A DNA stretch of 64,000 bases from a virus (IMGVR_UViG_3300037067_008087:18397-82396), one strand, 5' to 3'; positions 2,046 through 55,720 are shown, counted from the first letter of the stretch. Program-made: numbers and translations. The notes: generated by a model from the sequence alone, not told the origin.

Positions 2046-2184
2046 GGAAGCCAAAATGAAATATAAGTATGCCCTTAAACATAGAGATGTTTACAAAATC
2101 CAAAGAGACGAAATACTAAACGCAATAATTACATCCCCCACTCCTAATTGGGGGAGCCTGATAATCAAAGTGACATACATATGA
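2017..2184 (+). CDS. Small hypothetical protein (55 aa; not in the ORF track)
   Basis: Hand translation: ATG at 2017 after GAGGAG, MTQQEKNQIKEAK...IIKVTYI*. The TGA overlaps the ATG at 2181 (ATGA coupling). Confidence 0.55.
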   Translation: MTQQEKNQIKEAKMKYKYALKHRDVYKIQRDEILNAIITSPTPNWGSLIIKVTYI

Positions 2185-2981
2185 TCCATTTTTTTTGCCC
2201 CTTAGGTGGTAAAGCAGGATGGGATGATAATGAGTTAAGATATATGTTGAGAAGCCTTGAAAAGAACGTGGACGCGGAATTTGATATAACCGTGTATAGT
2301 GATCATAACGTCCCGTGGCTTAGGAATGTAAAGTTTAAAATTATAGACAGGCCAAGAGACGGCAACTATGAGAATTTCTGGGACACACTTAATAAGATTT
2401 ATTCTTATTCTGTAGCGCATCGGCACTCTAAAATGGACACATTCATTTATATTTATGATGATGTTGTATTATTAAAGAAATCTAGAGTAGGAGATTTATC
2501 TGAATTGTTTAATGTAGCATTACAGGAAGATATTATTGATAACCAAAAGAGAAATAAAACGAAGCACGGACGTACTATAAAAAAGGCATTAGAGTTAACT
2601 AATGGCAAATACAACTACGAAACACACATGCCTAGACTATATCACGCCAATATAGTATTAGAGGTGTTTAAATTATATAACGTATTTTCATGTGATATAC
2701 CGCCATCATTCGCCACGCTATACTATAATCACTTAGACACAGCCCCCACTTTATTGAAAAACACCAGAAACAAAAGGGTTTCATTTTGTTTTGAAGATGA
2801 AGATAGCACAGGATCAGTAACAGCCGTAAATGAAGGAGAAATAGATATATTTTGTAAGAATAAGATGTGGTTGCATTATAACGACAAAGGATTAAATTTT
2901 GCCCCAAATGGACAACAGATACTTAAGAATTATATAATGAAAATGCTTCCTAACCCGTCTAAATTTGAATTATATGTTTAG
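2181..2981 (+). CDS. Stealth-family-like sugar-1-phosphate transferase
   Basis: DDNELRYMLRSLEKN...VPWLRN resembles Stealth CR2 (ELRYSLRS..K...P.WL); also YDDVVL and ETHMP. Start moved from 2148 to the ATG at 2181 because of the ATGA overlap. Confidence 0.6.
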   Translation: MIHFFCPLGGKAGWDDNELRYMLRSLEKNVDAEFDITVYSDHNVPWLRNVKFKIIDRPRDGNYENFWDTLNKIYSYSVAHRHSKMDTFIYIYDDVVLLKKSRVGDLSELFNVALQEDIIDNQKRNKTKHGRTIKKALELTNGKYNYETHMPRLYHANIVLEVFKLYNVFSCDIPPSFATLYYNHLDTAPTLLKNTRNKRVSFCFEDEDSTGSVTAVNEGEIDIFCKNKMWLHYNDKGLNFAPNGQQILKNYIMKMLPNPSKFELYV

Positions 2982-3897
2982 CGCTGTAATTACAACCATT
3001 CAGGAGCCAACCAAGGAGACGAAAGAACTTGTAAAAAAATTAGAAAGGCCGTTGATAGTAATAGGGAATAAAAAGACACCAGAGTATAATCTTCCCGGAG
3101 CCAAGTTTTATTCTTTAGACGATCAAAAGAAATTAGGCTTTCAGGTAAATAATTATTTACCAGTTAACTCATATACAAGGAAGAATATAGGCTATCTGAT
3201 AGCTATGAAGAATAAATCCACGGCTATATTCGACGCAAATGATGATGCAGCCCCCTGTGATGGGTGGGTTAAGAGAGATATAATATCTAAAAGCGTTGAA
3301 GCTATTGAATATAAATGGACAAACGTTCTCAAGTGGTTTATGTATGACTTATGGCCGTCTAAGTTTAGGGTGGCGCGTATTAATATGTTGGATTTTGCCT
3401 TAGGAGACATCAAAGATGGCGTGTACCCAATACAATATGGGATGGTTGATGGTGATAATTGGGCTTTTAATGAATCTGTGCCATTAAGCGTTAGGGCGGG
3501 GAACTGGTGTTTGTTTAATGGCAGAAATACATGGTGGTTCCCTAAGGCGTATCCATTGATGTACCTGCCGTCATATTGCAGCTCAACGCTTGCTGAAATA
3601 TGGAGAAGCTTTGTAGCCCAAAGGTGTTTATGGGAAATGGGGCATCAAGTTTTGTTTTATACGGGGCACATGTTTAAATCAGGGAGACTCAGCAGCCCAG
3701 AAGATATTGAAGAAGAAATAGACGGATACTCTGTGGATGACAAAATACTCAGTATATTGAGCAATTTATCGCTGAATGGCGATAGTTGTGATAATATGAG
3801 GGCTTGTTACGAAGCGCTCATAAAGGAATATATAATACCAGACGAAGAAATGTATTTAATAGATGCATGGATAAATGATATAAATAATTTAATATGA
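2974..3897 (+). CDS. STELLO/DUF288-like glycosyltransferase
   Basis: VITTIQEPT, VIGNKKTP, SYTRKNIGYLIA, IFDANDD, FNGRNTWW, YPLMYLP, IWRSFVAQR follow the STELLO family pattern. Probable start is the ATG at 2974. Confidence 0.75.
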   Translation: MFSAVITTIQEPTKETKELVKKLERPLIVIGNKKTPEYNLPGAKFYSLDDQKKLGFQVNNYLPVNSYTRKNIGYLIAMKNKSTAIFDANDDAAPCDGWVKRDIISKSVEAIEYKWTNVLKWFMYDLWPSKFRVARINMLDFALGDIKDGVYPIQYGMVDGDNWAFNESVPLSVRAGNWCLFNGRNTWWFPKAYPLMYLPSYCSSTLAEIWRSFVAQRCLWEMGHQVLFYTGHMFKSGRLSSPEDIEEEIDGYSVDDKILSILSNLSLNGDSCDNMRACYEALIKEYIIPDEEMYLIDAWINDINNLI

Positions 3898-4610
3898 AAA
3901 ATATATCAACTGAATTTACGTATGATGATAAGATGCCTTTTGAAATGCGTATAGACCAAGATTCTAAATGCCCAATAATTTGCCATATAGATTGTGGGCA
4001 TGGCGGGATGGTTAATGGGGTTTATCAAACTAATGGCAAAATGTGTGATCATGGAGACTTTGTGTTTTACGAGGGGGTTTTTAATAGGGTAATAGGGAAG
4101 GCGCTTGCTGTTAAATTTTATCAGGGAAACATATCTTATAATTTTACAACTACATCTAATTACGACACCCCTCTTCCTGAAAGAATAGAAAAGGTGGGGC
4201 GATTGGTGAAGCATTACAAGAGCCATAAACACATATTGCTATCATTACACGCAAATGCATTTGGGGTTGAGTCTACGTCTGGTTTTGAATATTTTACAAC
4301 ACCCGGAGTGACAGAATCTGATTATGCCGCCAATTTCTACTATCCTTATATCCTTGACTTAGGGATGAAGATGAGAATAAGCGCTCCTAATCCCAATGAA
4401 TATGACAAAGAATCAAGATTTTATGTGATTTTAAAAGGAGAAGAGGTGGGTTGTGTGTCTTTATTGTTTGAGGCTGGATTTATGACTAACAAAGAAGAGG
4501 CGCTTAAAATGCTAACTCCAGAGTTCCAAAATGCCTATGTTAATGCATTATATTTAGGGACACAAGATATCATAACCCAAATAGATGTTTACGGTAGTAT
4601 AAAAAAATAA
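3894..4610 (+). CDS. N-acetylmuramoyl-L-alanine amidase (Amidase_3), probable endolysin
   Basis: Zn-ligand motifs DCGHGG, EGVFN, SLHANA and LFEAGFMTN. Confidence 0.9.
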   Translation: MKNISTEFTYDDKMPFEMRIDQDSKCPIICHIDCGHGGMVNGVYQTNGKMCDHGDFVFYEGVFNRVIGKALAVKFYQGNISYNFTTTSNYDTPLPERIEKVGRLVKHYKSHKHILLSLHANAFGVESTSGFEYFTTPGVTESDYAANFYYPYILDLGMKMRISAPNPNEYDKESRFYVILKGEEVGCVSLLFEAGFMTNKEEALKMLTPEFQNAYVNALYLGTQDIITQIDVYGSIKK

Positions 4611-4614
4611 GAAT

Positions 4615-5157
4615 ATGAATAATAGAGGAGTATGGGATGAGTCAGAAGCAAAGAGCAGGCATGTATTCGACTTAGGATTATGTTTTGGGATAGCAGATTA
4701 TATATCCCAAAATGATACTATAGTTGATATAGGGTGTGGGAACGGCGCCTACGTGAAAGCATTAAAAAAAGTGGGCTTTGATATAATTGGCTTTGATGGC
4801 TGCTTGATAACACCTGAAATAACTGAAGGGTTGTGTGAGGTTTGTGATTTTTCAGAAAGAGCTGATATAGGTGTATATGATGTTGTTTTGTGTTTAGAGG
4901 TTGGAGAGCATATACCAGCTGAGTATGAGAATATTTTTATTGATAATGTTTGCCGCGCTACCAAGAAGTTGTTAATATTAAGCTGGGCTATAGAAGGACA
5001 GGGAGGGGACGGGCACGTTAATTGCCGTAATAATGATTATATTATCAATAAGATAGAGCAGGAGGGACTTAAGTATGATAAATTAATGGGAGATAAATTA
5101 AGGGGGCTTGCTTTCCATGAGTGGTTTAAAAATACAATAATGTGTTTTAAGAAATGA
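4615..5157 (+). CDS. Class I SAM-dependent methyltransferase
   Basis: IVDIGCGNG motif I, GFDG, DVVLCLEVGEHI, GHVNC. Confidence 0.85.
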   Translation: MNNRGVWDESEAKSRHVFDLGLCFGIADYISQNDTIVDIGCGNGAYVKALKKVGFDIIGFDGCLITPEITEGLCEVCDFSERADIGVYDVVLCLEVGEHIPAEYENIFIDNVCRATKKLLILSWAIEGQGGDGHVNCRNNDYIINKIEQEGLKYDKLMGDKLRGLAFHEWFKNTIMCFKK

Positions 5158-5783
5158 TAACGGTGTTAATATGCGTCCACTCCCGTGATGACCTTCATGA
5201 TAAGCTATTCGGGGAGGCCCTTGATAGTTTACTCGCTCAAACCTATAAGGAATTTAAAACAGTTATTGTGTTTGATGAATGTTGGGATAACACCTATAAG
5301 GTAGCCGAAAAGTTGACTAACTACATACAGGTTATAAAGACCCCCAAAACCGGATTATCAGACGCTAAGAACGAGGGTATAAGATACATAAACACAGATT
5401 GGGTTGCGTTCCTTGATGCAGACGACATGTGGCTCCCTGAAAAATTAGAGAAACAGGTTAAACACCTACAGAATGCGGACATTATTTCTACTCATTATTG
5501 GTTTAGAAAGATAGGCGATAAAGAGGAAATAACTGAGTCTTGTTTTTCTACAAAAGATTATGTCACTCATGATCAAATAGCCGCAAGGCTCCCTGTAGAG
5601 AATTGCCTCTGTCATGGTTCTATTCTCATGAAGCGCAGTATCTTTGATAAGGTTAAATACGGTAATCACAAGGGCATAGAAGATTGGGTGTTATGGAAAG
5701 ACTGCCTTGCGCTCGGATATAGATTTTATCAGTTACCTGAAAGATTATATGTTTACACAACAAACACAAGCGTAGAAAGATGA
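5154..5783 (+). CDS. GT2-family glycosyltransferase
   Basis: GLSDAKNEGI, AFLDADDMWLPEKLEKQ (DXD), EDWVLW. Confidence 0.9.
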   Translation: MITVLICVHSRDDLHDKLFGEALDSLLAQTYKEFKTVIVFDECWDNTYKVAEKLTNYIQVIKTPKTGLSDAKNEGIRYINTDWVAFLDADDMWLPEKLEKQVKHLQNADIISTHYWFRKIGDKEEITESCFSTKDYVTHDQIAARLPVENCLCHGSILMKRSIFDKVKYGNHKGIEDWVLWKDCLALGYRFYQLPERLYVYTTNTSVER

Positions 5784-6865
5784 CGATACACGAACAAAAG
5801 GCTGAGACCATAATTAAGTACTCAAATAAGTACGGATTAGATACCATGATTGAGACCGGCACTTATTATGGAGACATGGTGGAGTCCCAACGAAACAATT
5901 TCAAAAAAATAATATCTATTGAACTTGGTGACGGGTTGGCAAAGAAAGCACAAGAACGGTTTGATGCTTATCCCCATATAAAGATACTTCAGGGCGACAG
6001 CGCTGAGGTTATTATGCAGCTATTACCAAGGGATCGTACATTGTTTTGGTTAGACGCCCATTGTTCCGGTAATGATACGGCGGGAAGTGATGAGGATAAC
6101 CCCCTTATTCACGAATTGGAGGCGCTTGTAAAAGATAAAAACCATGTTATATTAATAGATGACATTCATGATAAAAGGCAGGACTTAGAGGACATAGTGG
6201 AGGGGATGATTGTCTCTTATGAACCGGGGATTATGGTTTTAGAACCCCGTGAAATAAGTAATGTAAATTTTTCTATTACCACAGCGTGTAATAGAAGTTG
6301 TAGAAACTGTTCCTATAACGCCCCGAATAAGAGCGTGAAACATCTTACAGAGCAAGAAATACGCCATGCTGCCCCTTATTTTAGTGGTTGTTCTATTACT
6401 ATTACGGGAGGAGAGCCGACAATACACCCTAAATTCCTTGAATTAGTGCCCAAGTTTGAAGAAATATTCGGACGCAAGGTGTCTATCGAGACTAATGGGT
6501 ATATGTTAAAAAAACATCCTGACATATTCAGGCACTTTAAGAATATCCACATTGCTAACTATATAAAAGGAGATTACTTTACCGCCAAAGAAGATAATAC
6601 GGCGGTTATTAAGTGGTTTGTAAAGAATTACCCTGACATTAATGTATGTGTAGACGAGATGCGATCACACAGGGATAGAAATACTTGGGGCAAGAGGATT
6701 TGCCCTGCCGGGACTGCTATAACCATTGCGTATATGGGCGGGTTAGTATATCCATGCTGTATAGGAGATGGTCATATGGGCGCTATAGGTATAGGGCTGG
6801 ATGGATGGAGAGATAAAATACGTAATACGCCCCTTAATTGTCATAAATGCTTTTTCTCGCTATGA
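5780..6865 (+). CDS. Fusion of a methyltransferase-like domain and a radical SAM (SPASM/twitch-type) domain
   Basis: N-half ETGTYYG, SIEL, GDS, FWLDAH, ILIDD; C-half CNRSCRNC (CxxxCxxC), TGGEPT, ETNG, plus C-terminal cysteines CPAG, YPCC and CHKC. Confidence 0.8.
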   Translation: MTIHEQKAETIIKYSNKYGLDTMIETGTYYGDMVESQRNNFKKIISIELGDGLAKKAQERFDAYPHIKILQGDSAEVIMQLLPRDRTLFWLDAHCSGNDTAGSDEDNPLIHELEALVKDKNHVILIDDIHDKRQDLEDIVEGMIVSYEPGIMVLEPREISNVNFSITTACNRSCRNCSYNAPNKSVKHLTEQEIRHAAPYFSGCSITITGGEPTIHPKFLELVPKFEEIFGRKVSIETNGYMLKKHPDIFRHFKNIHIANYIKGDYFTAKEDNTAVIKWFVKNYPDINVCVDEMRSHRDRNTWGKRICPAGTAITIAYMGGLVYPCCIGDGHMGAIGIGLDGWRDKIRNTPLNCHKCFFSL

Positions 6866-7497
6866 AAGTAATAAGTTATTGTTTGTGGGGTAATAACCCT
6901 AAGTATATAGATGGGTTGTACCGCAATGTCTGTATTATAAAAGAGAAGCTCCCGGGATATAGGGTCTATTTATATGTAAATAAGAATTATTATATTGACA
7001 TTGATGGGTTTACGGTAATAAGAACCAATCATGACGGAAACTATCTAATGTTTGACAGATTCAGACCAGTCGGAGATATAACATATAGTAGAGATTTAGA
7101 CTCCCCTATATTAGACAGAGAGATAGAGGCGATGAAAGAATTTGAGGCTTCTGATAAAGGCATCCATGTAATGAGAGATCACCCGTATCATCGCGCGCGT
7201 ATTCTAGGAGGCACATTAGGGATAAAGAAGGGAGCCGTAAGGGGGATTAATAAACTAATAGATAATCATATTTATAAATACAATGATGAGTGGTTTAGCG
7301 ACCAGATATTCCTAAATGACATAATTTATCCTATGGTAAAGGATAATATGCTTATACACTCATCTATTAACTTCTACACCGATGAAAAACCAACTCCCTT
7401 TCCAACAGAGAGAGTGGGAGATGAGTTTGTGGGAATGATATTGCCGAGGGTTTATGAACATCATGCCGTATTAAGAAATGCTGAAAATATTATTTAA
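6862..7497 (+). CDS. Putative glycosyltransferase-like protein (GT-A-like, family uncertain)
   Basis: VISYCLWGNNPKY, RDLDS (DXD), HVMRDHPYH, ILGG, DQIFL; sits inside the glyco cluster. Start is the ATG at 6862 (ATGA overlap). Confidence 0.55.
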   Translation: MKVISYCLWGNNPKYIDGLYRNVCIIKEKLPGYRVYLYVNKNYYIDIDGFTVIRTNHDGNYLMFDRFRPVGDITYSRDLDSPILDREIEAMKEFEASDKGIHVMRDHPYHRARILGGTLGIKKGAVRGINKLIDNHIYKYNDEWFSDQIFLNDIIYPMVKDNMLIHSSINFYTDEKPTPFPTERVGDEFVGMILPRVYEHHAVLRNAENII

Positions 7498-10400
7498 TTT
7501 TCCAACAAGAGAGAGGCCTGATAGGTTTAAGAAGAGTCTTGATTCAATCCTTAATAATTGCGAGGGCGATTTTAGGGTGATTGTTAAATTAGATAGAGAT
7601 GACCCTACGATAAGCCGCTATTTAGCTCTAGTGGACGAATACCGTAATTATCCTATTATATGGAATATAGGAGATTCAAAAAATAAGGTTAATGCAATTA
7701 ATAGAGATATATCTAATCTTGAATGGGATGTTGTTTTTTGTTGGGCTGATGATATATTTGCCATATACAAAGGCTTTGATAATATTATACGGGGTTCTTT
7801 TACAGACATAAACTCTTGGCCGTGCTTTTGGGATGGATACAGGAAGGATGATCTTATTACCATGTGCATTGTAAGTAGGGTTAATTACGATAGGTTCGGG
7901 TATGTATATTATCCGGGCTATGAATCCCTGTACTGCGACAACGAAATGACTGAAATAGCGAGGATTATGGGCGGGTTGAATGTTATACGCCATCCGCAAA
8001 TAGTTAAGCATAATCACCCCGCGCTAAATACCAATGTGCGATTCGATGAACTAAACACTAAAAACGACAAAAGTTCTTCCGTTGACAAGAAGTTATTTGA
8101 AGAGCGTAAAAATAACAATTTTTACATAAACAATAACGATGAGTTGTTAGCCTTAAAATACCAGCAGGAGCCATTAGAGTACGAGGGTTTAATATACAAA
8201 TATTTTAACCCGAAAAAGAAATTAACCATTTTCGAGGTAGGAGCCTGCCAATGTGAGGATACCCTGAAATTACAGAAGTTATTCCCTAATTCTGATATTC
8301 ATGCGTTTGAGCCAATACCGGACAATTACAACAAAGGGCGCCAAAAGATAAGCGGCATCACTCTAAATAATATAGCTGTATCAGACCACAAGGGGGAAGA
8401 TGATATGTATGTAAGCTCTGGGGCTCCCTGTGGCAGCGGAGAGTTTTATGGTAACAAAAGCAGTTCTTTATTAGCCCCATATAAACACCTTGAGATATTT
8501 GAGTGGTGTAAGTTCAATAAGAAGGTACGAGTTAAAGTAGATACTATCGCCAACTACATAACCAAGAAAAACATAAAGCACATTAATTTCATCCATATGG
8601 ATGTTCAGGGGGCTGAGTTACAGGTACTAAAAGGATGCGGGGCGTTTATTTCTAATGTGGATATAGTGTTTTTAGAGGTGGCAAGAATAGAAATGTATAA
8701 GGATCAAGCCTTATTGCCGGACATAAACGACTTTTTTATTTCTAATGGCTTTGAATTGATATATCAGAATGTTAGCGATGTTGCAGGTAATCAATTATGG
8801 GCGAGGATTAAATCGGATTTGCTATTTACTTCCATGCCAAAATATTGTATTAATCTTGCAAAGGAAGTTGACCGAAGAGTTGGCGTGGCTGGTGAATTTG
8901 AAAAGTTAGGGCTATCTATAAATTTCTATAACGCCATAGATGGCAAGAAGCTGGAGCCAAGTAGAACCATGACGGCGAATGAGATTGCATGCTCTAGGTC
9001 TCATAGAAACATAATTAAAGAAGCAAAGAGGCAAGGCCTTGAGTATGTATATATATGCGAGGATGACATTAAGTTCTGTGATGATTTCTGGAAAAGAATA
9101 AGGCGCATAGAGTCTTGTGGGTTAGATTATGATATGTTATTTTTAGGAGGGCACTTTAGTGATAAAGAGGCTATGCCCATAGAATCATCCCCTACAATAC
9201 ATGATAATATATATAGGGTATATAGATTAGCAGGGGCATATTCTTATATTGTTAAAAGTACCGCTTATGATAAAATACTTAATGCGCCAGAGAAATTTGC
9301 TATAGATGCTTTATATTGTTATTTTATTCAGAAACAAGTTAAAGCCTATGCGTTCATCCCATTCTTAACAACTTGTGCGCCTTGTTTCTCTAATATAACC
9401 GGGGTATATATGGAGTACCCCCATGTAAAATGGTATTATTCAAAAAAAATAGAAATGATTACTTATACGAAGTTAGGTAAAAACGGCAGGCTTGGGAACC
9501 AGTTGTTTCAAGTAGCCGCAGCTATTGCGATAGCTAAAGATAATAAAACAACGGCTAAATTGCCCGTTAACTGGCAATACCGTAATTATTTCAATGTGCC
9601 AGACAAATATTTTGGAGATACGTCACCGGATTTATTGGTGAATGTATCAAATTATCATTATGACATAAGCAAACTGGAGAAGGTTGACTTTGAAAAATGC
9701 GTTGACCTATTTGGGTATTTCCAATCAGAGAAGTATTTTAAAAATATTAAAAAAGATATCATAAAATGGTTCACGCCCAAGGTGGCTAGGTTAGATGAGT
9801 GGTCTGTTGGTATGCATATACGCAGAGGAGATTTTGTGGGTAATAAGGCTCATATAAACCTAAAGCCAGAATATTATATTAGCGCTATTGATAAGTATTT
9901 TAATGACCCACGCTATAAGTTTTATATATGCACTGATGATCCAGACTATGCAAGATTCCATTTCAAGGGTGATCGGTTTATAATAGCAGATAGAACGGAA
10001 CTTGAGGACTTTGATGTTATGGTATCATGCCAAAATCACATCTTAGCCAATAGCTCATTTAGTTGGTGGGGGGCTTATTTAGCACAAAGCAAGAGGGTTA
10101 TTCGCCCCGCTAAATCTTTTAGGGGTGTGCTTGATCCTCTTAGTGAGAAAGACCTGTGGCAGCCTGAGTGGATAACCCATGAAGATCACCGGATAGACCT
10201 ATCTGATGTTACTTTTATCACTACATTTAAGTACGATCACCCAGATAGGATAGAGAACCTTGATATATTTATGGATCAGCTTGGGGCTTATAAAACTAAC
10301 ATCCTTATAGGGGAGATGGGAGGGCAAATTGTAAAAGAAAAGTATCCTAAAAACTACGTAGACTTAAATTTTATAAAAGTCTTCCATCATACCCGCAGTA

Positions 10401-11758
10401 ATAACATATTGGCAGCATTGGCTAAAACAGAAATAGTTATCAATATAGACTGTGATATTGTTGTCCCCCCCAATCAGATATATGAGGCGGTTAAGATGCT
10501 GAGAAACGGCTATGAGTTCGTTTTCCCGTATGAGGGGATATTTGTGAGGGTGGGGAATGGGTCTAATGACCGGAACCAAGATTATATAAAATTAATTAAA
10601 GAGGCTGGAGACATAGGGATATTAAAGGGAATAGAGTTTTTTGGCATGTCTTCCGACAATATAGAGAGCCATGGTGGTGTGTTTGGATTTAGGAAGGGTG
10701 TTTACTTTAAGTACGGAGGGGATAACGAAAATTATGTTTCCTACGCACCAGAGGACACTGATAGAGCCTATAGATTCAGAACGCTGAGTAAATACGGGAG
10801 GGTAAGCGGTTCCCTTTATCACTTAAATCATTTTTGTGGTGTGGACAGCACTAATATGAATCCATATTTTAACGCATCAGTCAAGGAGTGGGGAAAGGTA
10901 AGGGCTATGAATAAAAAACAGCTCCTTGCTTACATTAAAACATGGGAGTGGGATTATAGTAAAGTAAAAACACTTAAGGATATAGATAAGGGGTCATGCA
11001 TAAAAACAACTAAAAATAACATCACCGATGTTACATTTATCATACCTGTTAAATACGATCATCCAGACAGAAAAGAAAACCTTAATTTATGTATTAGTTT
11101 TTTACGATATTGGTTTGATACTAATATAATAATAGGGGAACAGGGTGGCGATAAGTTCTCTTACGTAAAGGATATCGGGTGTGAATATGTGAAGTTTGAC
11201 AGCATGCATGAATTTCACCGCACACAGATGATAAATAAACTTACATCTATAGCTAAAACACCAATAGTTTTTAATTGGGATGCCGATGTTGTGGCTCCCC
11301 CGAATCAGGTACTGGACGCGGTAAATTATTTAAGAAACGGGGGCGAGTTTGCTTATCCTTACAACGGAACATTTATTAAAATAGATAAGGACAAAGCGTC
11401 ACAGTTTGGTATATCACTGGATATATCAATGCTTTTTTCGGCAGAACACCAAAAAATAGTGTCAGATTCTGATGGTGGGGCTATAGGATATAAAAAGGAC
11501 GCCTTTTTTAGAATAGGGGGAGAAAATGAACATTACATGTCCCATAGCCCTGAAGACAGGGATAGAAAATACAGAATAGAGACCTTGGCTGAATACACAA
11601 GGATACCGGGGCCGTTGTTTCATATAAACCACTATAAAAGCAAAGACTCAATTCATGATAATCAATATAAGGTTATTAATAAAAGCGAATGGAGGAAGGT
11701 GGGACAAATGAGTAAGGCAGAATTAACTAAATATATAAAAACATGGAAATGGATTTAA
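7478..11758 (+). CDS. 1426 aa multidomain glycan-synthesis protein: GT-A + FkbM methyltransferase + GT25 + GT11 + two tandem GT2/GT7-like domains
   Basis: GT-A (WADD, SLYCDNE); FkbM (FEVGA, AFEP, HMDVQGAE); GT25 (YCINL, DRR, ACSRSH, ICEDD); GT11 (GRLGNQLFQ, GYFQSEKYF, HIRRGDF, NSSFSWWGAYL); two repeats of DVTFI..KYDHPDR.ENL...D.D...GG.NE.Y....PED.DR. Confidence 0.85.
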   Translation: MLKILFNFPTRERPDRFKKSLDSILNNCEGDFRVIVKLDRDDPTISRYLALVDEYRNYPIIWNIGDSKNKVNAINRDISNLEWDVVFCWADDIFAIYKGFDNIIRGSFTDINSWPCFWDGYRKDDLITMCIVSRVNYDRFGYVYYPGYESLYCDNEMTEIARIMGGLNVIRHPQIVKHNHPALNTNVRFDELNTKNDKSSSVDKKLFEERKNNNFYINNNDELLALKYQQEPLEYEGLIYKYFNPKKKLTIFEVGACQCEDTLKLQKLFPNSDIHAFEPIPDNYNKGRQKISGITLNNIAVSDHKGEDDMYVSSGAPCGSGEFYGNKSSSLLAPYKHLEIFEWCKFNKKVRVKVDTIANYITKKNIKHINFIHMDVQGAELQVLKGCGAFISNVDIVFLEVARIEMYKDQALLPDINDFFISNGFELIYQNVSDVAGNQLWARIKSDLLFTSMPKYCINLAKEVDRRVGVAGEFEKLGLSINFYNAIDGKKLEPSRTMTANEIACSRSHRNIIKEAKRQGLEYVYICEDDIKFCDDFWKRIRRIESCGLDYDMLFLGGHFSDKEAMPIESSPTIHDNIYRVYRLAGAYSYIVKSTAYDKILNAPEKFAIDALYCYFIQKQVKAYAFIPFLTTCAPCFSNITGVYMEYPHVKWYYSKKIEMITYTKLGKNGRLGNQLFQVAAAIAIAKDNKTTAKLPVNWQYRNYFNVPDKYFGDTSPDLLVNVSNYHYDISKLEKVDFEKCVDLFGYFQSEKYFKNIKKDIIKWFTPKVARLDEWSVGMHIRRGDFVGNKAHINLKPEYYISAIDKYFNDPRYKFYICTDDPDYARFHFKGDRFIIADRTELEDFDVMVSCQNHILANSSFSWWGAYLAQSKRVIRPAKSFRGVLDPLSEKDLWQPEWITHEDHRIDLSDVTFITTFKYDHPDRIENLDIFMDQLGAYKTNILIGEMGGQIVKEKYPKNYVDLNFIKVFHHTRSNNILAALAKTEIVINIDCDIVVPPNQIYEAVKMLRNGYEFVFPYEGIFVRVGNGSNDRNQDYIKLIKEAGDIGILKGIEFFGMSSDNIESHGGVFGFRKGVYFKYGGDNENYVSYAPEDTDRAYRFRTLSKYGRVSGSLYHLNHFCGVDSTNMNPYFNASVKEWGKVRAMNKKQLLAYIKTWEWDYSKVKTLKDIDKGSCIKTTKNNITDVTFIIPVKYDHPDRKENLNLCISFLRYWFDTNIIIGEQGGDKFSYVKDIGCEYVKFDSMHEFHRTQMINKLTSIAKTPIVFNWDADVVAPPNQVLDAVNYLRNGGEFAYPYNGTFIKIDKDKASQFGISLDISMLFSAEHQKIVSDSDGGAIGYKKDAFFRIGGENEHYMSHSPEDRDRKYRIETLAEYTRIPGPLFHINHYKSKDSIHDNQYKVINKSEWRKVGQMSKAELTKYIKTWKWI

Positions 11759-14778: not shown

Positions 14779-15468
14779 TTAATTAGATAATCCTAATATT
14801 GCTAATATTGTTGCAATCCCCCCAAATATTACAGCAACAGTCGCATTCCTATTAACATTCTTCTTAAGAAGTTTAATCTGGTAATCTTTATCTCCTATGA
14901 CTTTATTTTTCTGGTTATCTTGTTTTACATATAACTCTATCTGATTTTCATAAGTGGCATTAAGCAACTCACACTCCTCATAATTCATTAAAATAACATC
15001 CGTATAAGCTTCGTATTGTACTATCTCATCCCGCAACATCCATGATTCGGAATAAATATTAAATAAGCCGTCTAATTGAGGCTCAGAGAAAGGATAGTCT
15101 TTAGGGGTATCGTCTGTACCAACTACAGTAATAAGGCTGTCATATTTAACGCTAGGGGGTATATTAGCATTACTAACCTTAAGCTCCGCTATTTGTTTAT
15201 CTAAAGCTGATATTGATCTCTGATAAGCTTTAATTTCTTTATTGCCATCAATTATCCTTTGCTGTATCTCAATAACATCAGCCTTTAAAAGCTTTAGCGA
15301 ATCAGATAAAACCCTTATAGTATCTTGTCTTAGGGAGATATCCGACTTTAACGCCTTAATTTCTTTTGAATATTTAACTCCACGGTGGCTAGCATAGCCG
15401 GCTACAAACAATAACACAGCTATCATAACCACCGTTAGGATGTTAAATTTAATTTTAGCCTCAGCCAT
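14779..15468 (-). CDS. Membrane-anchored coiled-coil protein, spanin (Rz)-like
   Basis: N-terminal TM (ILTVVMIAVLLFVAGY), a long heptad region and a C-terminal TM (ATVAVIFGGIATILAILGL). Confidence 0.5.
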   Translation of the reverse strand: MAEAKIKFNILTVVMIAVLLFVAGYASHRGVKYSKEIKALKSDISLRQDTIRVLSDSLKLLKADVIEIQQRIIDGNKEIKAYQRSISALDKQIAELKVSNANIPPSVKYDSLITVVGTDDTPKDYPFSEPQLDGLFNIYSESWMLRDEIVQYEAYTDVILMNYEECELLNATYENQIELYVKQDNQKNKVIGDKDYQIKLLKKNVNRNATVAVIFGGIATILAILGLSN

Positions 15469-15470
15469 TA

Positions 15471-15812
15471 TTATTCTTTTTTAAGTGCAGCTTTTACTCT
15501 CAACCCGAAATCTGCTGCCTCTTTTAAGAGGTCAAGGGCGTCTTCAATAAGGGACTCAAGTTCATCATCAATAATATCAAACTCTACTTTTATGTGTTCC
15601 TTAAGTTCATCCATTTCAAACATGTCCAAATCATCTAATTCCTCCTTGATCTCAGCCGCATTTTTTATAAGGGTGGGGATTTCAATGAGGTTAGGGAGAA
15701 GAGCTGTGGTATCTGGCAGCCACTGCCATCCGTCTTGGGTAATGTTATCCACCTTATTAAACACATGAATTACAAAACCCACTGCTTGTTTTAGTTTATC
15801 TATATCAGCCAT
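15471..15812 (-). CDS. Hypothetical acidic protein (113 aa)
   Basis: ORF track; TAACTTTG box at 15838..15845 on the minus strand upstream. Confidence 0.6.
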   Translation of the reverse strand: MADIDKLKQAVGFVIHVFNKVDNITQDGWQWLPDTTALLPNLIEIPTLIKNAAEIKEELDDLDMFEMDELKEHIKVEFDIIDDELESLIEDALDLLKEAADFGLRVKAALKKE

Positions 15813-19953: not shown

Positions 19954-20717
19954 AGATACTTTTCTTCTAACCAATCATATATTGTAGATTGTGTAGTCCC
20001 GTCATCAACAACACTTCTGATAATAACTGCTTTTACCTCTATATTTGAATTATACGAGCCACCGCCATTACTCCCAAGATAAAAACCAGCCATATCATTA
20101 CTCCCAGCATTTCCCGTTACGGCGGTATTTTTATTAATCTGCAAAGAGGAGCTTTCGCCATTTAAAATTACACGAACAATGCCGTATGTATCTAAAGCTA
20201 AATCACCATCATCTTGCAATACAGTCCCAGCATATAATCTTAAATATCCTGAATTATCAGTTGATCCTTGTTGTAAAGAACCGTATTCGCTGGCATTATT
20301 ACCATCAAACACAAAATCCCACCGAGACCAAGTAACTTGTTTAAAGACAATATAAATGGTTATTGGTTGATTTAAAGTATATACCCCACCAAGAAAAGCG
20401 CCTTCTCCATTAAACAATATTCCATTTGCGTTTAAAACAGGACGTTCAACCCAAACTACAGGTACAAGGTCTAAGTCGTTACCAGATTCAAAATAGTCTC
20501 TCCATTCTTCAACATAAGTAGGATGGTCAACGGTCATGGTAAACGTACTTGATTCATCGTACAAATACATCGCTACCGTATTATTATCAAGTTCCTCTGG
20601 ATACTCCCCTCCTTCTTCCCCAGCACTCTGCACCCCCCTATAAAACGGATACCTCCCTATCTGCCCGTTAACTGAAACAAGCAGAAATAATAAGGGTATT
20701 ATTATTAACTTTTTCAT
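19950..20717 (-). CDS. Signal-peptide-bearing concanavalin A/LamG-like lectin-domain protein
   Basis: MKKLIIIPLLFLLVSVNG-Q; beta-sandwich pattern (P.L...G..F.G, TIYIVFK, SSLQIN, IKAVII-like strand, YDWL..KY). Confidence 0.6.
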   Translation of the reverse strand: MKKLIIIPLLFLLVSVNGQIGRYPFYRGVQSAGEEGGEYPEELDNNTVAMYLYDESSTFTMTVDHPTYVEEWRDYFESGNDLDLVPVVWVERPVLNANGILFNGEGAFLGGVYTLNQPITIYIVFKQVTWSRWDFVFDGNNASEYGSLQQGSTDNSGYLRLYAGTVLQDDGDLALDTYGIVRVILNGESSSLQINKNTAVTGNAGSNDMAGFYLGSNGGGSYNSNIEVKAVIIRSVVDDGTTQSTIYDWLEEKYL

Positions 20718-43777: not shown

Positions 43778-43833
43778 ATGTCTTGTTTTGGTTTACTGGG
43801 TACAAAATTACAAATATTCTAAATATATGTTTT

Positions 43834-50582: not shown

Positions 50583-50825
50583 TTATTTCTTCATTTTAAG
50601 GAAACCAAAAGTAATGCCCTCTATTACAGAATCCTTTACTAATATCAAGCCGTATCCTAAAAGGAACATAGGGATAATTTCAGTACCCACCTTAAACTGT
50701 ATTGGTGTTTTATGTATAACATCCACTATGTTGGCATAAATCATAAACAAAGTAAATGCCATTATCGGCACACCCAATGCTGTTGTTACGACATTTTTCC
50801 ATATTCTATCTTTTGTGTCGCCCAT
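50583..50825 (-). CDS. Two-TM membrane protein, holin-like
   Basis: 80 aa with two hydrophobic segments and a basic C-terminus (FLKMKK). Confidence 0.5.
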   Translation of the reverse strand: MGDTKDRIWKNVVTTALGVPIMAFTLFMIYANIVDVIHKTPIQFKVGTEIIPMFLLGYGLILVKDSVIEGITFGFLKMKK

Positions 50826-50831: not shown

Positions 50832-53800
50832 TTAGTTAAACGTTACCGTCATCTGAAACCCTGTCCCCACCTGTCCATTTCGGTCGCTCTCGAATATCAC
50901 GTACATATACCTACCGGTTGAACTACATGAATTACCAACCGTTGGGAAGTTGGTTGTCAGTGCGCTTCCGTGCCGTCCTATAAGAGTTGATCCCGCCACG
51001 TTGCCGTCATAAATCTTTACTATGTCGTATTGCACGGTTGTACTGTTATCCAAGTCCATTGCATTGACGGTAAGGGTGACTGTATTCCCTGCACCGGCAT
51101 CAATTAACCATGCTTCGGTAACTTGTTCACTGTAATTACTGCCATATTCGCTGTTAGTAAAAGTCTGTTCAGTGGTAATGAGTGTCTGGTATTGGTATGT
51201 CTCTCCCGTGATCGGATAGGGCACGTCAAGTGTGCCTTCAACTAACCCCACAATTGGTGTTTCCGGTGTCCATAAAACAATGTTATCCCAATATACGTGG
51301 GTATCTTCATCTTGGCGATATTCGTCAGAGGCGCCCCCTTGAAAGTATGTAAATTCAAGAATATCTATAAGGTTATTCATGAGGGTAGCGTCCTCATAAA
51401 AGCGGTAATTGCTATATTGATAAATTGGTATGTCGTTATAAAATATCTCTATTATGCCGTCTGAGTTGGCTGCCGATGAATTCATTTCAGCATGAATCGT
51501 AAGTTTATACCACACCCCCGGTAGGAAGTAATTTGTATTAGTTCCGAAACTCGGATAATTGATATTATTGCCGTAGCCAGTTGGCCAATGGTTATAATAG
51601 TAGTGCGAAAGCTGTCCGCCCATGAGAAATTGAGGCACAACATAAAATCCTTCATCTTCGCCGGGCTCCTCAAGCAAAAAATTCCAAGGAGTTCCTTTAA
51701 TCCCGAAATTCTTGCCCCCTCCGGAAGACGACCAGTTGGTTAAATCGTCATCCCCATACTTTATGTCCATTGATATCCATATATCGCTGTACCCTGATCC
51801 GTTATTAAGAGGATAATCCCAGAAATATAACTGGCTATATGTTTCTGCTGGATATGTTAACTGTAGTGCCTTGTTCGAAACATCACCATTCATTGATTCA
51901 GTAACGATATTTAGCTTATCCTCATGCCCGGAGTCAATATAAGCTGTTGAACCCGAAAAATAACTCTCTATTTCCGCTTCGGTAAATTGACCTAAAGTCT
52001 GATCTTCAAAGTTCCAATACTCCAATATTTCAAAGTCAGCAAGTGGGTCAACTATTGTTAATTCCTCCCATGTTACGTTAGATATATAAAATGTAGAACT
52101 TGATCCCCCTATGTCAAACGTTATCTTTGCACTATAATGGTCTACATCTGAATAGTATTGAGAATAAACTCTTGTTGTGCCACTATTGTCTACATTATAT
52201 TCTTCTCTATAAAACATACGGGTTCCCGCCTTAGCTAACAAATAATTTCTATTGCTAGCAGATCGTATTGTATAACTTAAACGATATATTTTGCCCTGCA
52301 CCAAATCCACAGTATGTCCAATTCTAATATCTGTAGTGCTTGATCCGGGTGTGTTAACCGTTACCACTAACTCACCACCAGAATAACTTAATGATGCCTC
52401 TGCCGTGGGAGTTGTGCCATCGCTATCAAAACACCCCCAGTTATCTGTAGAACTAGCAAAGTTAGATTGGTAAATAACAGTTGAATCAAATGCCACCGGG
52501 GTTGGATATGGATCAACGAACAGCGCTTGCTCAACCTCCTCCATATAATCCCCATCTGTAAAAACACCAAAGTCCGCATCAAAATCCCATATACACCAAG
52601 ACCACCCCTTCGACTCAAACCAACGGGACAGGAAATTAAAATAAGGGGCACGGGCCGTTGTGTCGTCTGCTAACGTATATACACCAAACTCACCTATATG
52701 TATCGGTACATTATTGTTAGCAGCCCTAAATTCATCCACATAAGCAAAATCTCCAATTATAACATCCATAAAAGGTTGAATAGCATACCACGGAGTACCA
52801 CACCATGTTTCAGATAAATACCCCCCACCCGGCAACTCTAATCCCCATGCTGCACATTGATGTGTTAGTGTGCGGGGATCATAATAATGTAAAGAAACTA
52901 TAAGCCTATCGTCATCCGGTAATACGAGATATGGCAAACCCTTTACGCCCGCCCAATAGCCGGGAGATAACATTATATATTTATCGGTATCATAAGCCCT
53001 TATGGAATCTACCGCACGAGCAGCAAGGTCGTTCCATTGAGTTAGTGTTAGATCATAATGTGGTTCATTGACTAGTTCATATACAACTTCCGTTGTGTCA
53101 TAAGAGCTTAACGTGCTTGCTATCTGTGTCCAATGGGAAAGATATTCATTTATATTATCTGATGTATAACTTACCGTCCATGCTGGTGAATGATAGTCAA
53201 TAAGAGCCACCATGCCTCTTGACACACAACTATCAACCATATCAGTTAAATACCCCAATACAGATTCATTTATAACATTACCAGCCCCGTTATCAGCAAA
53301 TCCATATAAAACCAACCTAACATGATTAAAATGTTCAGCAAGACCATCCCATTCTGTCTTTGTGTAGTTAGGGACAAGATTAGAATTACTTACAACCCCG
53401 TATGCGTTAGCCCCACGCCCCAACATTTGTACCACTGTTGTGTCGTCATACTCTGGAGTTGGAGCTACATATGAGTAGGTAGGATCATAAGCAGCTCCAT
53501 TATAATAAGGGATATATTGCACCCCACCCCTATTTAAAACATATTGAGTAGGGTTGTATCCGACAGGAGGAGTACCTTCATCATATAAAATAAAATTAGT
53601 AGCCCCATTGTCATATAATGAATCAATCTGAGAATCACTAAGGGCATAATCATAATATTGAAAATTATCAATATTCCCCCCAAACGAACTATAACTTGTT
53701 GGTGTAAAATTACCCATAGTTAAAGTACCAGTAAGACTAATAGGGTCTGACATTACTGAATCAGATGTCTGATCTGTCCCGTTTATAAATATTCTTCCAT

Positions 53801-54263
53801 AACCCAAGTCTTCATTATACTTAATAAAAACAACATGAGTCCACTCCCCATAAGTGTAAACAGCATTACCCGTCAAGGCATCATTATCTCCATAAGCATC
53901 CCTAAAGTGTATATTACGATTAGCACAGTCCATATATGCCTTTAACTCATTAATCCCAAATGTAAAAAGATAAGGATATCCTGATGTTTTGCTTGTTTTA
54001 AACCACATGGAAATAGCATAGCCGCTTCCTGTATTAAGATTTGTGGTTGATGTGGCTGTTACATGATGCTGTAATCCATCACCAAAAACAACAGAATGTG
54101 TTGGTTCCTCGTATGTTGCACTACTGTATGTTATCCCTGACGACGTAAAGGTATAATTACCCATACTATCGGTAGCAGCATTATTGAAAAATACCGCCAT
54201 CCGTGGTTGTTGTCCTAAAACAGTTGCGCTTAATATAGATAATACAATGATTAAATATCTCAT
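50832..54263 (-). CDS. Signal-peptide-bearing multidomain CAZyme: LamG + GH5 + CBM-like + PL14-like + CUB
   Basis: MRYLIIVLSILSATVLG-Q; LamG (ISMWFK, WTHVV, IDNFQYYDYALS); GH5 (NHVRL, IDYH, ELVNEPH, LHYY, IGEFG, WCIWD); GGGKNFG; CUB (YDIVKIYDG...STGRYMYVIFESD...GF). Confidence 0.8.
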   Translation of the reverse strand: MRYLIIVLSILSATVLGQQPRMAVFFNNAATDSMGNYTFTSSGITYSSATYEEPTHSVVFGDGLQHHVTATSTTNLNTGSGYAISMWFKTSKTSGYPYLFTFGINELKAYMDCANRNIHFRDAYGDNDALTGNAVYTYGEWTHVVFIKYNEDLGYGRIFINGTDQTSDSVMSDPISLTGTLTMGNFTPTSYSSFGGNIDNFQYYDYALSDSQIDSLYDNGATNFILYDEGTPPVGYNPTQYVLNRGGVQYIPYYNGAAYDPTYSYVAPTPEYDDTTVVQMLGRGANAYGVVSNSNLVPNYTKTEWDGLAEHFNHVRLVLYGFADNGAGNVINESVLGYLTDMVDSCVSRGMVALIDYHSPAWTVSYTSDNINEYLSHWTQIASTLSSYDTTEVVYELVNEPHYDLTLTQWNDLAARAVDSIRAYDTDKYIMLSPGYWAGVKGLPYLVLPDDDRLIVSLHYYDPRTLTHQCAAWGLELPGGGYLSETWCGTPWYAIQPFMDVIIGDFAYVDEFRAANNNVPIHIGEFGVYTLADDTTARAPYFNFLSRWFESKGWSWCIWDFDADFGVFTDGDYMEEVEQALFVDPYPTPVAFDSTVIYQSNFASSTDNWGCFDSDGTTPTAEASLSYSGGELVVTVNTPGSSTTDIRIGHTVDLVQGKIYRLSYTIRSASNRNYLLAKAGTRMFYREEYNVDNSGTTRVYSQYYSDVDHYSAKITFDIGGSSSTFYISNVTWEELTIVDPLADFEILEYWNFEDQTLGQFTEAEIESYFSGSTAYIDSGHEDKLNIVTESMNGDVSNKALQLTYPAETYSQLYFWDYPLNNGSGYSDIWISMDIKYGDDDLTNWSSSGGGKNFGIKGTPWNFLLEEPGEDEGFYVVPQFLMGGQLSHYYYNHWPTGYGNNINYPSFGTNTNYFLPGVWYKLTIHAEMNSSAANSDGIIEIFYNDIPIYQYSNYRFYEDATLMNNLIDILEFTYFQGGASDEYRQDEDTHVYWDNIVLWTPETPIVGLVEGTLDVPYPITGETYQYQTLITTEQTFTNSEYGSNYSEQVTEAWLIDAGAGNTVTLTVNAMDLDNSTTVQYDIVKIYDGNVAGSTLIGRHGSALTTNFPTVGNSCSSTGRYMYVIFESDRNGQVGTGFQMTVTFN

Positions 54264-55720
54264 TCCCTTCTTTTTGTTTTCTTCTCTAATTTATCTATCC
54301 GCTTCTCAAGTTCCTCCTGCTTCCTCTCAACTGCTGCTATGTTTCTAAGATTTAATTCTATAGCAGCCTGTAGTGCTTGTAAATATTCCATTGGATTAAG
54401 TGATGTGGGTACAAATGTTGATTTTACATTCCCGTCTTTATCGGTATAAAACCATTCTACCTCCCCTTTCTTTTGGTCTTTTAGCCTTTCCTGAGCTGTT
54501 TTAAGATTCAATTTTAAAGCAAATGCTGCTGCCGCTAATGATCCACTATCAATACCACCCCTATATCCAGTGCCAACAAGCCAAAACAAGTCATCCCCAC
54601 CAGACAGATAACCTAATACTAATGTATCAGCTACGTGTAATTCATCACCTACATCTAAGGAATCGTCTATAACCATATTACCTACAAACCTTGATGTATC
54701 TGCTGCATATACACCACCTGCTGCTGTTGTGCTGAACCCCGTACTTGAGAATGCAGTTCCCCACAAAGTGCCATCGTAATTAAGCCTTGTGGTATTTGTG
54801 GGGGCTGTTGTACCTGTGTAGAAATAACCAGATGTCTTTGTTGTTCCACTTGTATTTAACACACTAGACCTGATATCAGATGATAAATAAATATTAGTAG
54901 AGTAAAGGCTTCCATTATAATTTAATCTTGTAGTAGATGAAGGGTTTGTTGTTCCATTATCAAAATACCCGGCAGTTGATGTTGTCCCGCTTGTATTTAA
55001 GACGGAACTATTAATATCGGTAATTGACGTAAGTTTGTATGCATGCAGATTCCCACCAAAATTCATCCTATTAGTGGAGTTTGGGTCTGTGGTTCCAGTA
55101 TAGAACGCCCCAGATGTTCGTGTTGATCCTGTAAACTGGAAATCAGAAGTCCCTTCTATTGCAGAAGAACTAGTCCATACTGCCACATAGCCATCTGCCG
55201 GAGTTCCCGTTACGGTAACATCACCAGTTCCACTCCCTCCCTCTAGTGCTATAATTCTTGTGTTATGGGATTGCAAGGTGTCTGTATGCAGGTCTATTGA
55301 ATCCTGTAAAGAAACCAACCCAGCTGCATTTGTATTTATCCTTGTGTTGTGTAATTGCAGTGTATCTGTGTGAATATCAATAGAGTCTTGTTTTGATTCA
55401 ATGCTAGTTAGGTTTGTGTTTATCCTAGTGTTATGCAACTGTAATGTATCTGTATGGGCATCAATGGAGTCCTGCAAACTTCCTATCCCACTTGGGACAG
55501 AACTGTCTACATATTTCTTAACAGCATATTCTGTTGGTATAGCACTAGAATCAGTGTCTGTTAGCGTGGTGTCATTAGACAGGCTTTTAACCCACAACGT
55601 CCAGTCATCGCTTTTAAACGACAGGCTGTCAGCCCGAGCCCCTCCTATCTTGGGCTGTACTTGGCACATTGCAAACAGGGGTATGATAACAAGGATTGAT
55701 AAAATAATATATCTTTTCAT
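54260..55720 (-). CDS. Trimeric tail-fibre-like protein with an N-terminal signal peptide
   Basis: Real start MKRYIILSILVIIPLFAMC-Q at 55720. Three QDSIDxHTDTLQxHNTRI coiled-coil repeats, three GTTxP..T.RxNxxG repeats, and a C-terminal coiled coil like those ending fibre chaperone domains. Confidence 0.7.
   Translation of the reverse strand: MKRYIILSILVIIPLFAMCQVQPKIGGARADSLSFKSDDWTLWVKSLSNDTTLTDTDSSAIPTEYAVKKYVDSSVPSGIGSLQDSIDAHTDTLQLHNTRINTNLTSIESKQDSIDIHTDTLQLHNTRINTNAAGLVSLQDSIDLHTDTLQSHNTRIIALEGGSGTGDVTVTGTPADGYVAVWTSSSAIEGTSDFQFTGSTRTSGAFYTGTTDPNSTNRMNFGGNLHAYKLTSITDINSSVLNTSGTTSTAGYFDNGTTNPSSTTRLNYNGSLYSTNIYLSSDIRSSVLNTSGTTKTSGYFYTGTTAPTNTTRLNYDGTLWGTAFSSTGFSTTAAGGVYAADTSRFVGNMVIDDSLDVGDELHVADTLVLGYLSGGDDLFWLVGTGYRGGIDSGSLAAAAFALKLNLKTAQERLKDQKKGEVEWFYTDKDGNVKSTFVPTSLNPMEYLQALQAAIELNLRNIAAVERKQEELEKRIDKLEKKTKRRE

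Follow-up and report, generated by a model that had tools for sequence, protein, structure and literature searches.

The window, a stretch of 64,000 nucleotides (18397-82396) in a virus record that consists of one contig of 82,396 bp (IMGVR_UViG_3300037067_008087), comes from a podovirus-like phage whose late operons encode fibre-like and polysaccharide-degrading proteins with signal peptides, and which also has a cluster of glycosyltransferase (GT) genes. In the reading that we favour and regard as fairly probable, six proteins of the late operons would be exported by the Sec pathway, cut by signal peptidase I (SPI) and O-glycosylated by the host, at least those of fibre and spike type would dock onto particles at lysis, and the GT cluster would be a separate module. 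Export of the virion fibres is well supported, and their O-glycosylation appears probable from the sequence; we infer that cleavage and glycosylation take place, when and where docking happens, and what the GT cluster acts on. Positions are those of the window unless marked as genome positions.

Export signals on six late proteins

Signal peptides of SPI type, which the preliminary description had claimed for the fibre, lectin and depolymerase genes and for a small neighbour, were found on all six proteins: two fibre-like proteins of 428 and 486 amino acids (aa), a lectin-like protein of 255 aa, two multidomain enzymes of 1348 and 1143 aa, and a small protein of 143 aa (Table 1). In each case the n-region is basic, the h-region is uncharged and hydrophobic, and small residues occupy positions -1 and -3. 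Position +1 is Gln in five of the six, among them the 486-aa protein (ATG at 55720); the exception is the 1348-aa protein (ATG at 19953), whose signal peptide ends in SVLNA/ATYY with Ala at +1. Gln at this position is the Bacteroidota Q-rule for SPI substrates (PMC10653852). The calls were made by an explicit, crude detector, which reported a signal peptide with Gln in 1 of 1808 internal Met-started windows versus 3-9% of the true N-termini of these phage genomes. Such an N-terminus is absent from every other large virion gene of the phage. True Bacteroidota-type export signals on the six predicted proteins are supported by these features.

It is most improbable that the hydrophobic N-terminal segments are uncleaved anchors, docking helices or products of chance, and that the fibres assemble in the cytoplasm. 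The AMC/Q end of the 486-aa protein is atypical and cleavage is a prediction, but Gln at +1 together with small residues at -1 and -3 is the signature of Bacteroidota SPI substrates, the detector has the low rate of false positives given above, and the feature is kept in dozens of homologues with differing mature N-termini. Moreover, it is just these proteins that show enrichment of a sequon specific to the periplasm, as described below. No C-terminal sorting domain of the type IX secretion system (T9SS; PF18962, TIGR04183 or TIGR04131) was detected in the six proteins (Pfam E<=0.01, NCBIfam E<=0.1).

The genes for the 143-, 428-, 255- and 1348-aa proteins form one block from 22812 down to 15907, between the gene of a 2259-aa internal protein and a spanin-like gene, and those for the 486- and 1143-aa proteins lie upstream of the small terminase. 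In a syntenic relative (G001; IMG/VR, 77 kb, large terminase TerL 37% identical), seven signal-peptide genes, five of them orthologous to the six of the present phage (G000), form one block with an orthologue of its 80-aa transmembrane (TM) protein before holin and amidase genes; the detector called no signal peptide on the 467-aa orthologue of the 486-aa fibre. A promoter-like Bacteroidota -7 motif (TAnnTTTG) is located 21-43 nucleotides upstream of the signal-peptide block (at 22836, before the 143-aa gene: GTAACTTTG) and of the operon with the 154-, 486- and 1143-aa genes (at 56216: GTAAATTTG), and a near-identical copy of the latter precedes the tail-adaptor operon (39689). In their extended sequences, the motifs at 22836 and 56216 agree with the ones that precede the internal-protein and adaptor operons, and the signal-peptide genes therefore look as if they were co-regulated with the virion genes. 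Two late leaders (~40804-40836 and ~43778-43810, minus strand) have CAGTAAACCAAAA in common, directly 3' of TAnnTTTG.

Enrichment of the O-glycosylation sequon

Bacteroidota reportedly possess a general protein O-glycosylation system that modifies the sequon D-(S/T)-(A/I/L/V/M/T), using a lipid-linked glycan that is flipped to the periplasm. Richness in this motif had been noted for the two fibre-like proteins and was confirmed: the 428-aa protein has 9 sequons versus 3.6 expected (shuffle p 0.006) and the 486-aa protein 10 versus 3.6 (p 0.002). Since some of these sites lie in repeats, a ranking of the proteome, the third-position rule and control motifs were used as further tests. All six signal-peptide proteins together hold 40 sequons versus 20.5 expected, and fifteen signal-less structural proteins 22 versus 25.3; the density is 1.08 per 100 aa in the six proteins versus 0.31 in the remaining proteome. 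Of the D[ST]x triplets in the signal-peptide proteins of the present phage, 65% end in an allowed residue, versus 39% by composition (p=7e-5). Pooled with those of G001, of a relative from the same TerL clade (G012, IMGVR_UViG_3300015214_000004), of an unrelated lineage (G002) and of a 66%-complete IMG/VR record (G004), the figure is 72.6% versus 39.6% (p~1e-30), and other proteins reach 40.0% versus 35.7%. Control motifs, either reversed or beginning with E or N, are enriched at most 2-fold.

When all proteins of at least 250 aa were ranked by sequon enrichment, the top three were signal-peptide proteins in the present phage, G001 and G012, and in G004 such proteins took ranks 1, 3 and 4. No protein is strongly enriched in G008-G011, four relatives of the TerL clade with signal-less large fibres. 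The sequon with its third-position rule thus tracks the export signal, in the pattern that would be expected from selection for periplasmic O-glycosylation.

The most extreme case was observed in G012, where three successive proteins with a signal peptide and Gln (1233, 653 and 948 aa; 62815-71268) contain the motif at 4-5 times expectation, namely 40 versus 10.1, 24 versus 4.9 and 14 versus 3.7 sites (P 1e-12 to 3e-5), in varied sequence contexts.

Probable association with the virion

Experimental support, indirect for the present phage, comes from two cultured Cellulophaga phages. In the podovirus phi18:3 (Pachyviridae, KC821620), gp085-087 are annotated in GenBank as 'structural protein, experimental MS/MS' (tandem mass spectrometry), and gp091-094 of the siphovirus phi10:1 (Assiduviridae, KC821618) bear MS/MS structural notes; all seven have a signal peptide followed by Gln. 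The former stand directly before TM proteins and a lysin, and the latter are followed by pectate lyase and holin-like genes. Over the first 118 residues, signal peptide included, gp086 and gp093 are 82-83% identical across podo- and siphoviruses. By analogy, these MS/MS notes argue against a role of the exported proteins as secreted helpers only. Signal peptides are mentioned neither in the annotations of the two records nor in one flavophage paper. A phmmer comparison of the six proteins with the signal-peptide proteins of both phages gave nothing significant, the best match being that of the 143-aa protein to the N-terminus of gp086 (E 0.0075 in a database of 8 sequences), and a tblastn search of cultured phages with the 428-, 486- and 1143-aa proteins gave no match.

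Judged by its shaft homology and predicted tip fold, the 428-aa protein is a tail fibre. Its residues ~150-240 correspond to the Gly-rich shaft found in many canonical signal-less fibres, and about 30 proteins that otherwise differ in sequence share the C-terminal 135 aa at 70-82% identity. Under the strict setting of the detector, a signal peptide with Gln was called in 24 of the 33 closest homologues (~30 of which share the tip) versus 1 of 86 canonical fibres that share the shaft only. The AlphaFold2 (AF2) model of residues 295-428 is a confident jelly-roll, with PBSX XepA (Z 8.9) and the tail fibre tip of phage 7-7-1 (Z 8.5, root-mean-square deviation 2.9, 112 aa aligned) as top matches, both at the level of a common fold, which is no proof of kinship. 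For the 255-aa protein the AF2 model (pLDDT 44) was too poor for use.

Tailspike-type domains, that is, right-handed beta-helix lyase or hydrolase domains, were found among the exported enzymes, with scores of 3e-18 for the Pel9A-like beta-helix, 1e-33 for PelN, 3e-34 for GH5 and 2e-6 for PL14. The N-terminal beta-helix of the 1348-aa protein is conserved in G001, G002 and G004. The N-terminal 226 aa of the 1143-aa protein are 57% identical to a 1505-aa protein of G001, and the C-termini of the two differ. Its first 230 aa were also considered as a virion anchor; they consist mostly of the LamG domain, have few homologues and were uninformative. An overlapping gene pair for a LamG-like protein of ~250 aa and a Pel9A-like beta-helix protein, both with signal peptides, is kept as a unit in four phage lineages (Table 1), two of them without TerL similarity to the present phage, and this pair may be a mobile module of a spike plus its partner.

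We consider it unlikely that the proteins are exported but stay outside the virion, as a periplasmic, surface-bound or released set of enzymes and lectins that strips or masks the host capsule and receptors. Such a set would ease release, keep progeny off debris or block superinfection, and the actual binding of the receptor would fall to another protein, one without a signal peptide. In its favour, the 1143-aa (LamG-GH5-PL14-CUB) and 1348-aa (PL9-like plus deacetylase) architectures are those of secreted bacterial carbohydrate-active enzymes (CAZymes), T9SS cargo proteins of bacteria come closest among the long homologues of the 1143-aa N-terminus, and Q-rule proteins of P. gingivalis phages were taken for host-surface modifiers (Matrishin 2023, PMC10367356). 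Against this stand the seven MS/MS-annotated structural proteins of two cultured phage families, the 428-aa protein as a bona fide fibre by predicted fold and homology, and the location of the signal-peptide genes at the fibre position of late operons. Among the signal-less proteins none was recognised as fibre-like, the virion structural protein of 1260 aa being without an assigned role. A weaker alternative is that part of the set, especially the CAZyme-like 1143-aa protein, acts as free enzyme.

Several observations nevertheless speak against a fully exported, glycosylated and virion-bound set. Part of the sequon excess in the two fibre-like proteins is due to internal repeats; the MS/MS annotations reveal neither removal of the signal peptide nor presence of a glycan; the 1143-aa protein resembles an ordinary secreted bacterial CAZyme and may never enter the virion; and for the present phage the evidence is of an indirect kind. 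Furthermore, the signal-peptide proteins of phi18:3, phi10:1 and G005 (a second lineage unrelated to the present phage) are sequon-poor, at 0-0.4 of expectation, so that glycosylation is no general rule for such fibres. The counts are 3 versus 9.5 expected for phi18:3 gp085-087 and 5 versus 12.8 for phi10:1 gp091-095, with a genome-wide baseline in phi18:3 that is also below 1; this shortage may represent avoidance of host glycosylation.

The glycan gene cluster

The cluster of 9.6 kb comprises eight overlapping plus-strand genes (2148-11758). It had been credited with at least seven glycosyltransferase or phosphotransferase domains, of which four GT domains proved firm; the accompanying statement that no cluster enzyme has a signal peptide holds. 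Above the Pfam cut-off are a GT2 (5154-5783), a Methyltransf_23 (4615-5157) and a radical SAM domain (5780-6865), as well as the FkbM methyltransferase, GT25, GT11 and GT2 domains of a fused 1426-aa protein. Stealth_CR2, STELLO, two further C-terminal GT2-like domains and Methyltransf_24/35 were matched below the cut-off only, and Pfam gave no match for the first 250 aa of the 1426-aa protein nor for a 216-aa protein. Stealth-like homologues are present in the GT clusters of L120, a clade member, and L121. Homologues of the fused enzyme are few, namely 15 proteins at E<=1e-20 among 5.8 billion, and the contexts inspected were all phage contigs; L120 has a homologue of it along with two GDP-sugar dehydratase/epimerase genes and a signal-bearing fibre before the small terminase. 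Identity between the present phage and G001 amounts to 55-71% in the cluster versus 25-37% in virion genes (TerL 37%).

The preliminary description had joined the GT cluster and the exported fibres into a single system. As stated, this is unsupported: GT2 occurs in relatives with signal-less fibres and is absent from phi18:3 and phi10:1. That the cluster is unconnected with the fibres falls only just short of an even chance. It would then remodel the lipopolysaccharide, capsule or surface glycans of the host so as to exclude superinfecting phages or mask receptors, or it would glycosylate cytoplasmic virion proteins directly, in the manner of mycobacteriophages and chloroviruses, and the exported fibres would receive the ordinary host O-glycan only. 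The following points favour this separation and tell against a link. GT2 is found in 7 of 9 relatives of the TerL clade (5 of the 6 near-complete ones), of which only G012 has signal-peptide fibres; G011, which lacks such fibres, has FkbM, GT11 and methyltransferase homologues; and neither of the two cultured phages with signal-peptide virion proteins has a GT2 gene. The cluster lies on the replication strand, in the replication module between a PD-(D/E)XK nuclease and a DnaA-like gene, and no late-type TAnnTTTG promoter motif was found before it. Its enzymes all appear soluble. Pfam gave no match for an initiating transferase, flippase or oligosaccharyltransferase in the eight cluster genes, membrane segments not having been formally scanned, and the cluster must therefore depend on host functions.

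For a connection, on the other hand, speaks that sequon-rich signal-peptide fibres and glycan genes occur together in five phages (the present one, G001, G012, L120 and G002), although no glycan genes were found in the 66%-complete G004 record. The preliminary description had proposed to look for such co-occurrence in related genomes; most GT2-bearing clade relatives have signal-less fibres. GT genes also stand inside or beside the structural and fibre module in two unrelated lineages with signal-peptide fibres (G002 and G005), and the enzyme mix of the cluster, GTs with three methyltransferase-like domains but without flippase or initiating enzyme, matches the toolkit of an outer O-glycan. 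The association is, however, confounded by shared descent, and the comparisons include few independent lineages. These were too few for a correlation of GT presence with sequon richness, which was dropped; G005 has GTs, yet its signal-peptide proteins are sequon-poor.

That the cluster glycosylates phage DNA by base hypermodification, as a protection against restriction, can hardly be credited. Replication and nuclease genes adjoin the cluster and a radical SAM enzyme is present, but no hydroxymethylase or thymidylate-synthase-like gene was seen among the open reading frames (ORFs) scanned, GT11, GT25 and FkbM domains typically serve to assemble oligosaccharides and to O-methylate sugars, and the related cluster of L120 has GDP-sugar dehydratase/epimerase genes.

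Proposed pathway

In the pathway that we favour, two fibres, a lectin-like protein, two polysaccharide-degrading multidomain enzymes and a small protein would be synthesised with Sec signal peptides of the cleavable kind and pass into the periplasm, and SPI would cut them before Gln, which would then probably cyclise to pyroglutamate. The general O-glycosylation system of the host would modify the D-(S/T)-(A/I/L/V/M/T) sites, and folding and trimerisation would take place in the periplasm. At least the fibre and spike types would dock onto DNA-filled particles built in the cytoplasm after holin lesions or lysis have joined the two compartments. Docking of free fibres and spikes onto particles is classical in-vitro complementation. 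The cluster would be a separate, clade-conserved module of soluble enzymes that most likely extends a lipid-linked glycan at the cytoplasmic membrane face, for which it would need an initiating transferase, a flippase and a transferase of the host. If this glycan is the O-glycan, the exported fibres would bear a phage-specified sugar coat. The corresponding two-compartment version, in which heads and tails arise in the cytoplasm, Sec-exported fibres and spikes receive a pyroglutamate cap and are O-glycosylated by the host transferase, their outer glycan is made on a lipid carrier by the phage GTs and methyltransferases, and docking takes place at lysis, seems rather doubtful to us.

The signal peptides, the sequon excess and the kin with MS/MS notes speak for the export and glycosylation of receptor-binding proteins that the preliminary description had proposed; its further points, the joining of virions at lysis and a glycan shield, we infer rather than see.

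Genome organization and other genes

A terminal overlap of 139 bp in the record indicates that the genome is complete. Its G+C content is 38%, and it contains no tRNA genes. The phage is an ~82-kb podovirus-like phage of a Bacteroidota host, distantly related to the Cellulophaga Pachyviridae. The nearest cultured kin are flavobacterial podoviruses, TerL being ~23% identical to that of Cellulophaga phi18:3 and its kin and of the Flavobacterium 'elemo' phages. In phi18:3, the portal corresponds to gp099, the 2259-aa protein to gp123 and the C-terminus of the 1260-aa protein to gp115, and both gp115 and gp123 are MS-annotated structural proteins. A scan of IMG/VR by portal gave no match. According to PHROGs, the late module on the minus strand (~14.8-56.2 kb) includes the small and large terminase with a TnpB insertion, the portal, scaffold-like and capsid-like genes, four small adaptor-size genes, the 1260-aa virion protein, three internal-protein-size genes and the 2259-aa protein.

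Table 1. Positions of the exported set, the glycan cluster and further genes (window positions unless a genome is named; a slash marks the predicted signal-peptide cut).
Feature	Position	Strand	Remarks
Two genes with weak Stealth_CR2 and STELLO similarity	2148..3897	+	Possible sugar-phosphate or glycosyl transferases
Amidase_3 endolysin, no glycan enzyme	3894..4610	+	Without signal peptide, inside GT cluster; in G001 part of the lysis cassette
SAM methyltransferase, GT2, methyltransferase-like plus radical SAM, 216-aa protein	4615..7497	+	55-71% identical to G001
1426-aa fused glycan enzyme	7478..11758	+	FkbM, GT25, GT11, GT2-like domains (one above, one or two below cut-off)
113-aa acidic and 229-aa coiled-coil genes	14779..15812	-	After signal-peptide block; 113 aa conserved in G001
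1348-aa exported depolymerase-like protein	15907..19953	-	LNA/A; Pel9A/PelN-like beta-helix, DUF5018, fn3, polysaccharide deacetylase; 12 sequons
255-aa exported ConA/LamG-like protein	19950..20717	-	VNG/Q; matched in ESM Atlas only (Laminin_G_3 clusters, score 0.98)
428-aa predicted tail fibre	20721..22007	-	AFG/Q; 9 sequons; helical repeats that bear sequons, Gly-rich shaft, jelly-roll tip at C-terminus
118-aa coiled-coil protein, C-terminal TM segment	22024..22380	-	Inside signal-peptide block, without signal peptide
143-aa exported small protein	22381..22812	-	ISA/Q; first gene of signal-peptide block
80-aa two-TM protein, holin-like	50583..50825	-	Accompanies signal-peptide genes in G000 and G001
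1143-aa exported enzyme	50832..54263	-	VLG/QQ; Laminin_G_3, GH5, PL14, CUB; 8 sequons
486-aa fibre-like protein	54260..55720	-	AMC/Q; three sequon-bearing repeats, conserved C-terminus; 10 sequons
154-aa protein	55731..56195	-	Without signal peptide; first gene of 154/486/1143 operon
LamG/beta-helix pair	19950-20717 and 15907-19953
LamG/beta-helix pair, G001	29692-30432 and 27866-29695
LamG/beta-helix pair, G002	29756-30481 and 27660-29756
LamG/beta-helix pair, G004	32457-33344 and 30925-32460
367-aa M20/M28/M42-like metallopeptidase	genome 13289-14392	+	Early region, without signal peptide; family mostly in viral records

The 229-aa protein (14779-15468, minus strand) has a TM segment at each end with a long coiled coil between them and weak LysB/FtsL hits, and may act in lysis as a spanin-like protein of a single chain; near its gene, no lipoprotein was seen that could be a separate o-spanin. 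TnpB (IS200/IS605-type, phrog_506 1e-124; 46279-47469, minus strand) sits between large terminase and portal, and a 36% identical TnpB of G001 is found at another location, adjoining an amidase. As a clue to the host it was dropped, the nearest cellular homologues being at most 53% identical and scattered over archaea, cyanobacteria and others. An ORF of 91 aa in the early region, located before the window (genome 7539-7814, minus strand) and unrelated to the fibre block, has a signal peptide with Gln (AYG/Q) and may encode an exported host-modifying or exclusion protein. The 367-aa M28/M42-like peptidase was considered as a phage glutaminyl cyclase and rejected: it had no sequence match in the PDB and belongs to a widespread viral M20/M28/M42-like family.

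Significance and comparison with known systems

Virions of tailed phages are taught to assemble wholly in the cytoplasm, and our literature searches returned no description of exported, signal-bearing or O-glycosylated tailed-phage fibres. If the proposed pathway is true, receptor-binding proteins matured in the periplasm would constitute a new assembly branch in a large group of environmental and gut phages. Annotation would be affected as well, since signal peptides now serve to exclude virion proteins, and depolymerases and fibres of Bacteroidota phages produced in heterologous hosts may need export and glycosylation for activity or stability. The pathway would also bear on host-range prediction, phage engineering and the resistance of phages to proteases or defences. 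The cultured Cellulophaga phages allow testing now, existing mass spectrometry data included, and G012 would be a good glycoproteomics target once its host is known. The present analysis adds the third-position and proteome-rank tests, the control with signal-less relatives and the test of the GT link.

Cellulophaga phi18:3 and phi10:1 resemble the present phage in having pectate-lyase-like or fibre-like proteins with a signal peptide and Gln at the distal end of the structural module, beside lysis genes, and phi18:3 has TerL, portal and two further virion proteins in common with it. They differ in that their signal-peptide proteins are dissimilar in sequence and poor in sequons, and in the lack of a GT2 gene. 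Q-rule proteins without an assigned function have been noted in P. gingivalis phages (Matrishin 2023, PMC10367356). These are likewise phage-encoded, with SPI-type signal peptides and Gln at +1, but were treated as host-surface modifiers and not identified as fibres or virion proteins.

In the Bacteroidota themselves, a species-specific outer O-glycan is made by GTs and three methyltransferases that act on a core encoded elsewhere (Tomek 2018, PMC6120980). The Sec-exported sequon substrates of that system and its soluble GTs with three methyltransferases match what is seen here, the latter the enzyme mix of the phage cluster; in contrast, the substrates here would be phage proteins, the candidate glycan genes are phage-encoded, and flippase and transferase were not found in the phage. 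Mycobacteriophages are reported to encode GTs that glycosylate virion proteins (Freeman 2023), and A064R of chlorovirus PBCV-1 is a multidomain GT-GT-methyltransferase. These virus-encoded GT sets, fused GT/methyltransferase proteins included, also decorate virion proteins, but they act directly on capsid or tail proteins in the cytoplasm, whereas the sequon-rich candidates described here would be exported, and any phage glycan would therefore need a lipid carrier.

The MAT fibres of Bdellovibrio are trimeric, resemble phage tail fibres, have a signal peptide and work outside the cytoplasm (Caulton 2024, PMC10769870). Phage-type fibres can thus fold and function after Sec export, although the MAT fibres are bacterial surface proteins, not virion parts, and are unconnected with glycosylation. 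The filamentous phages in turn are a well-established case of virion proteins whose signal peptides can be cleaved; their coat proteins (Ff pIII and pVIII) are inserted by Sec/YidC. Filamentous phages assemble by extrusion at the membrane, however, whereas in the phage described here head and tail would be built and packaged in the cytoplasm and receive their exported fibres from the periplasm.

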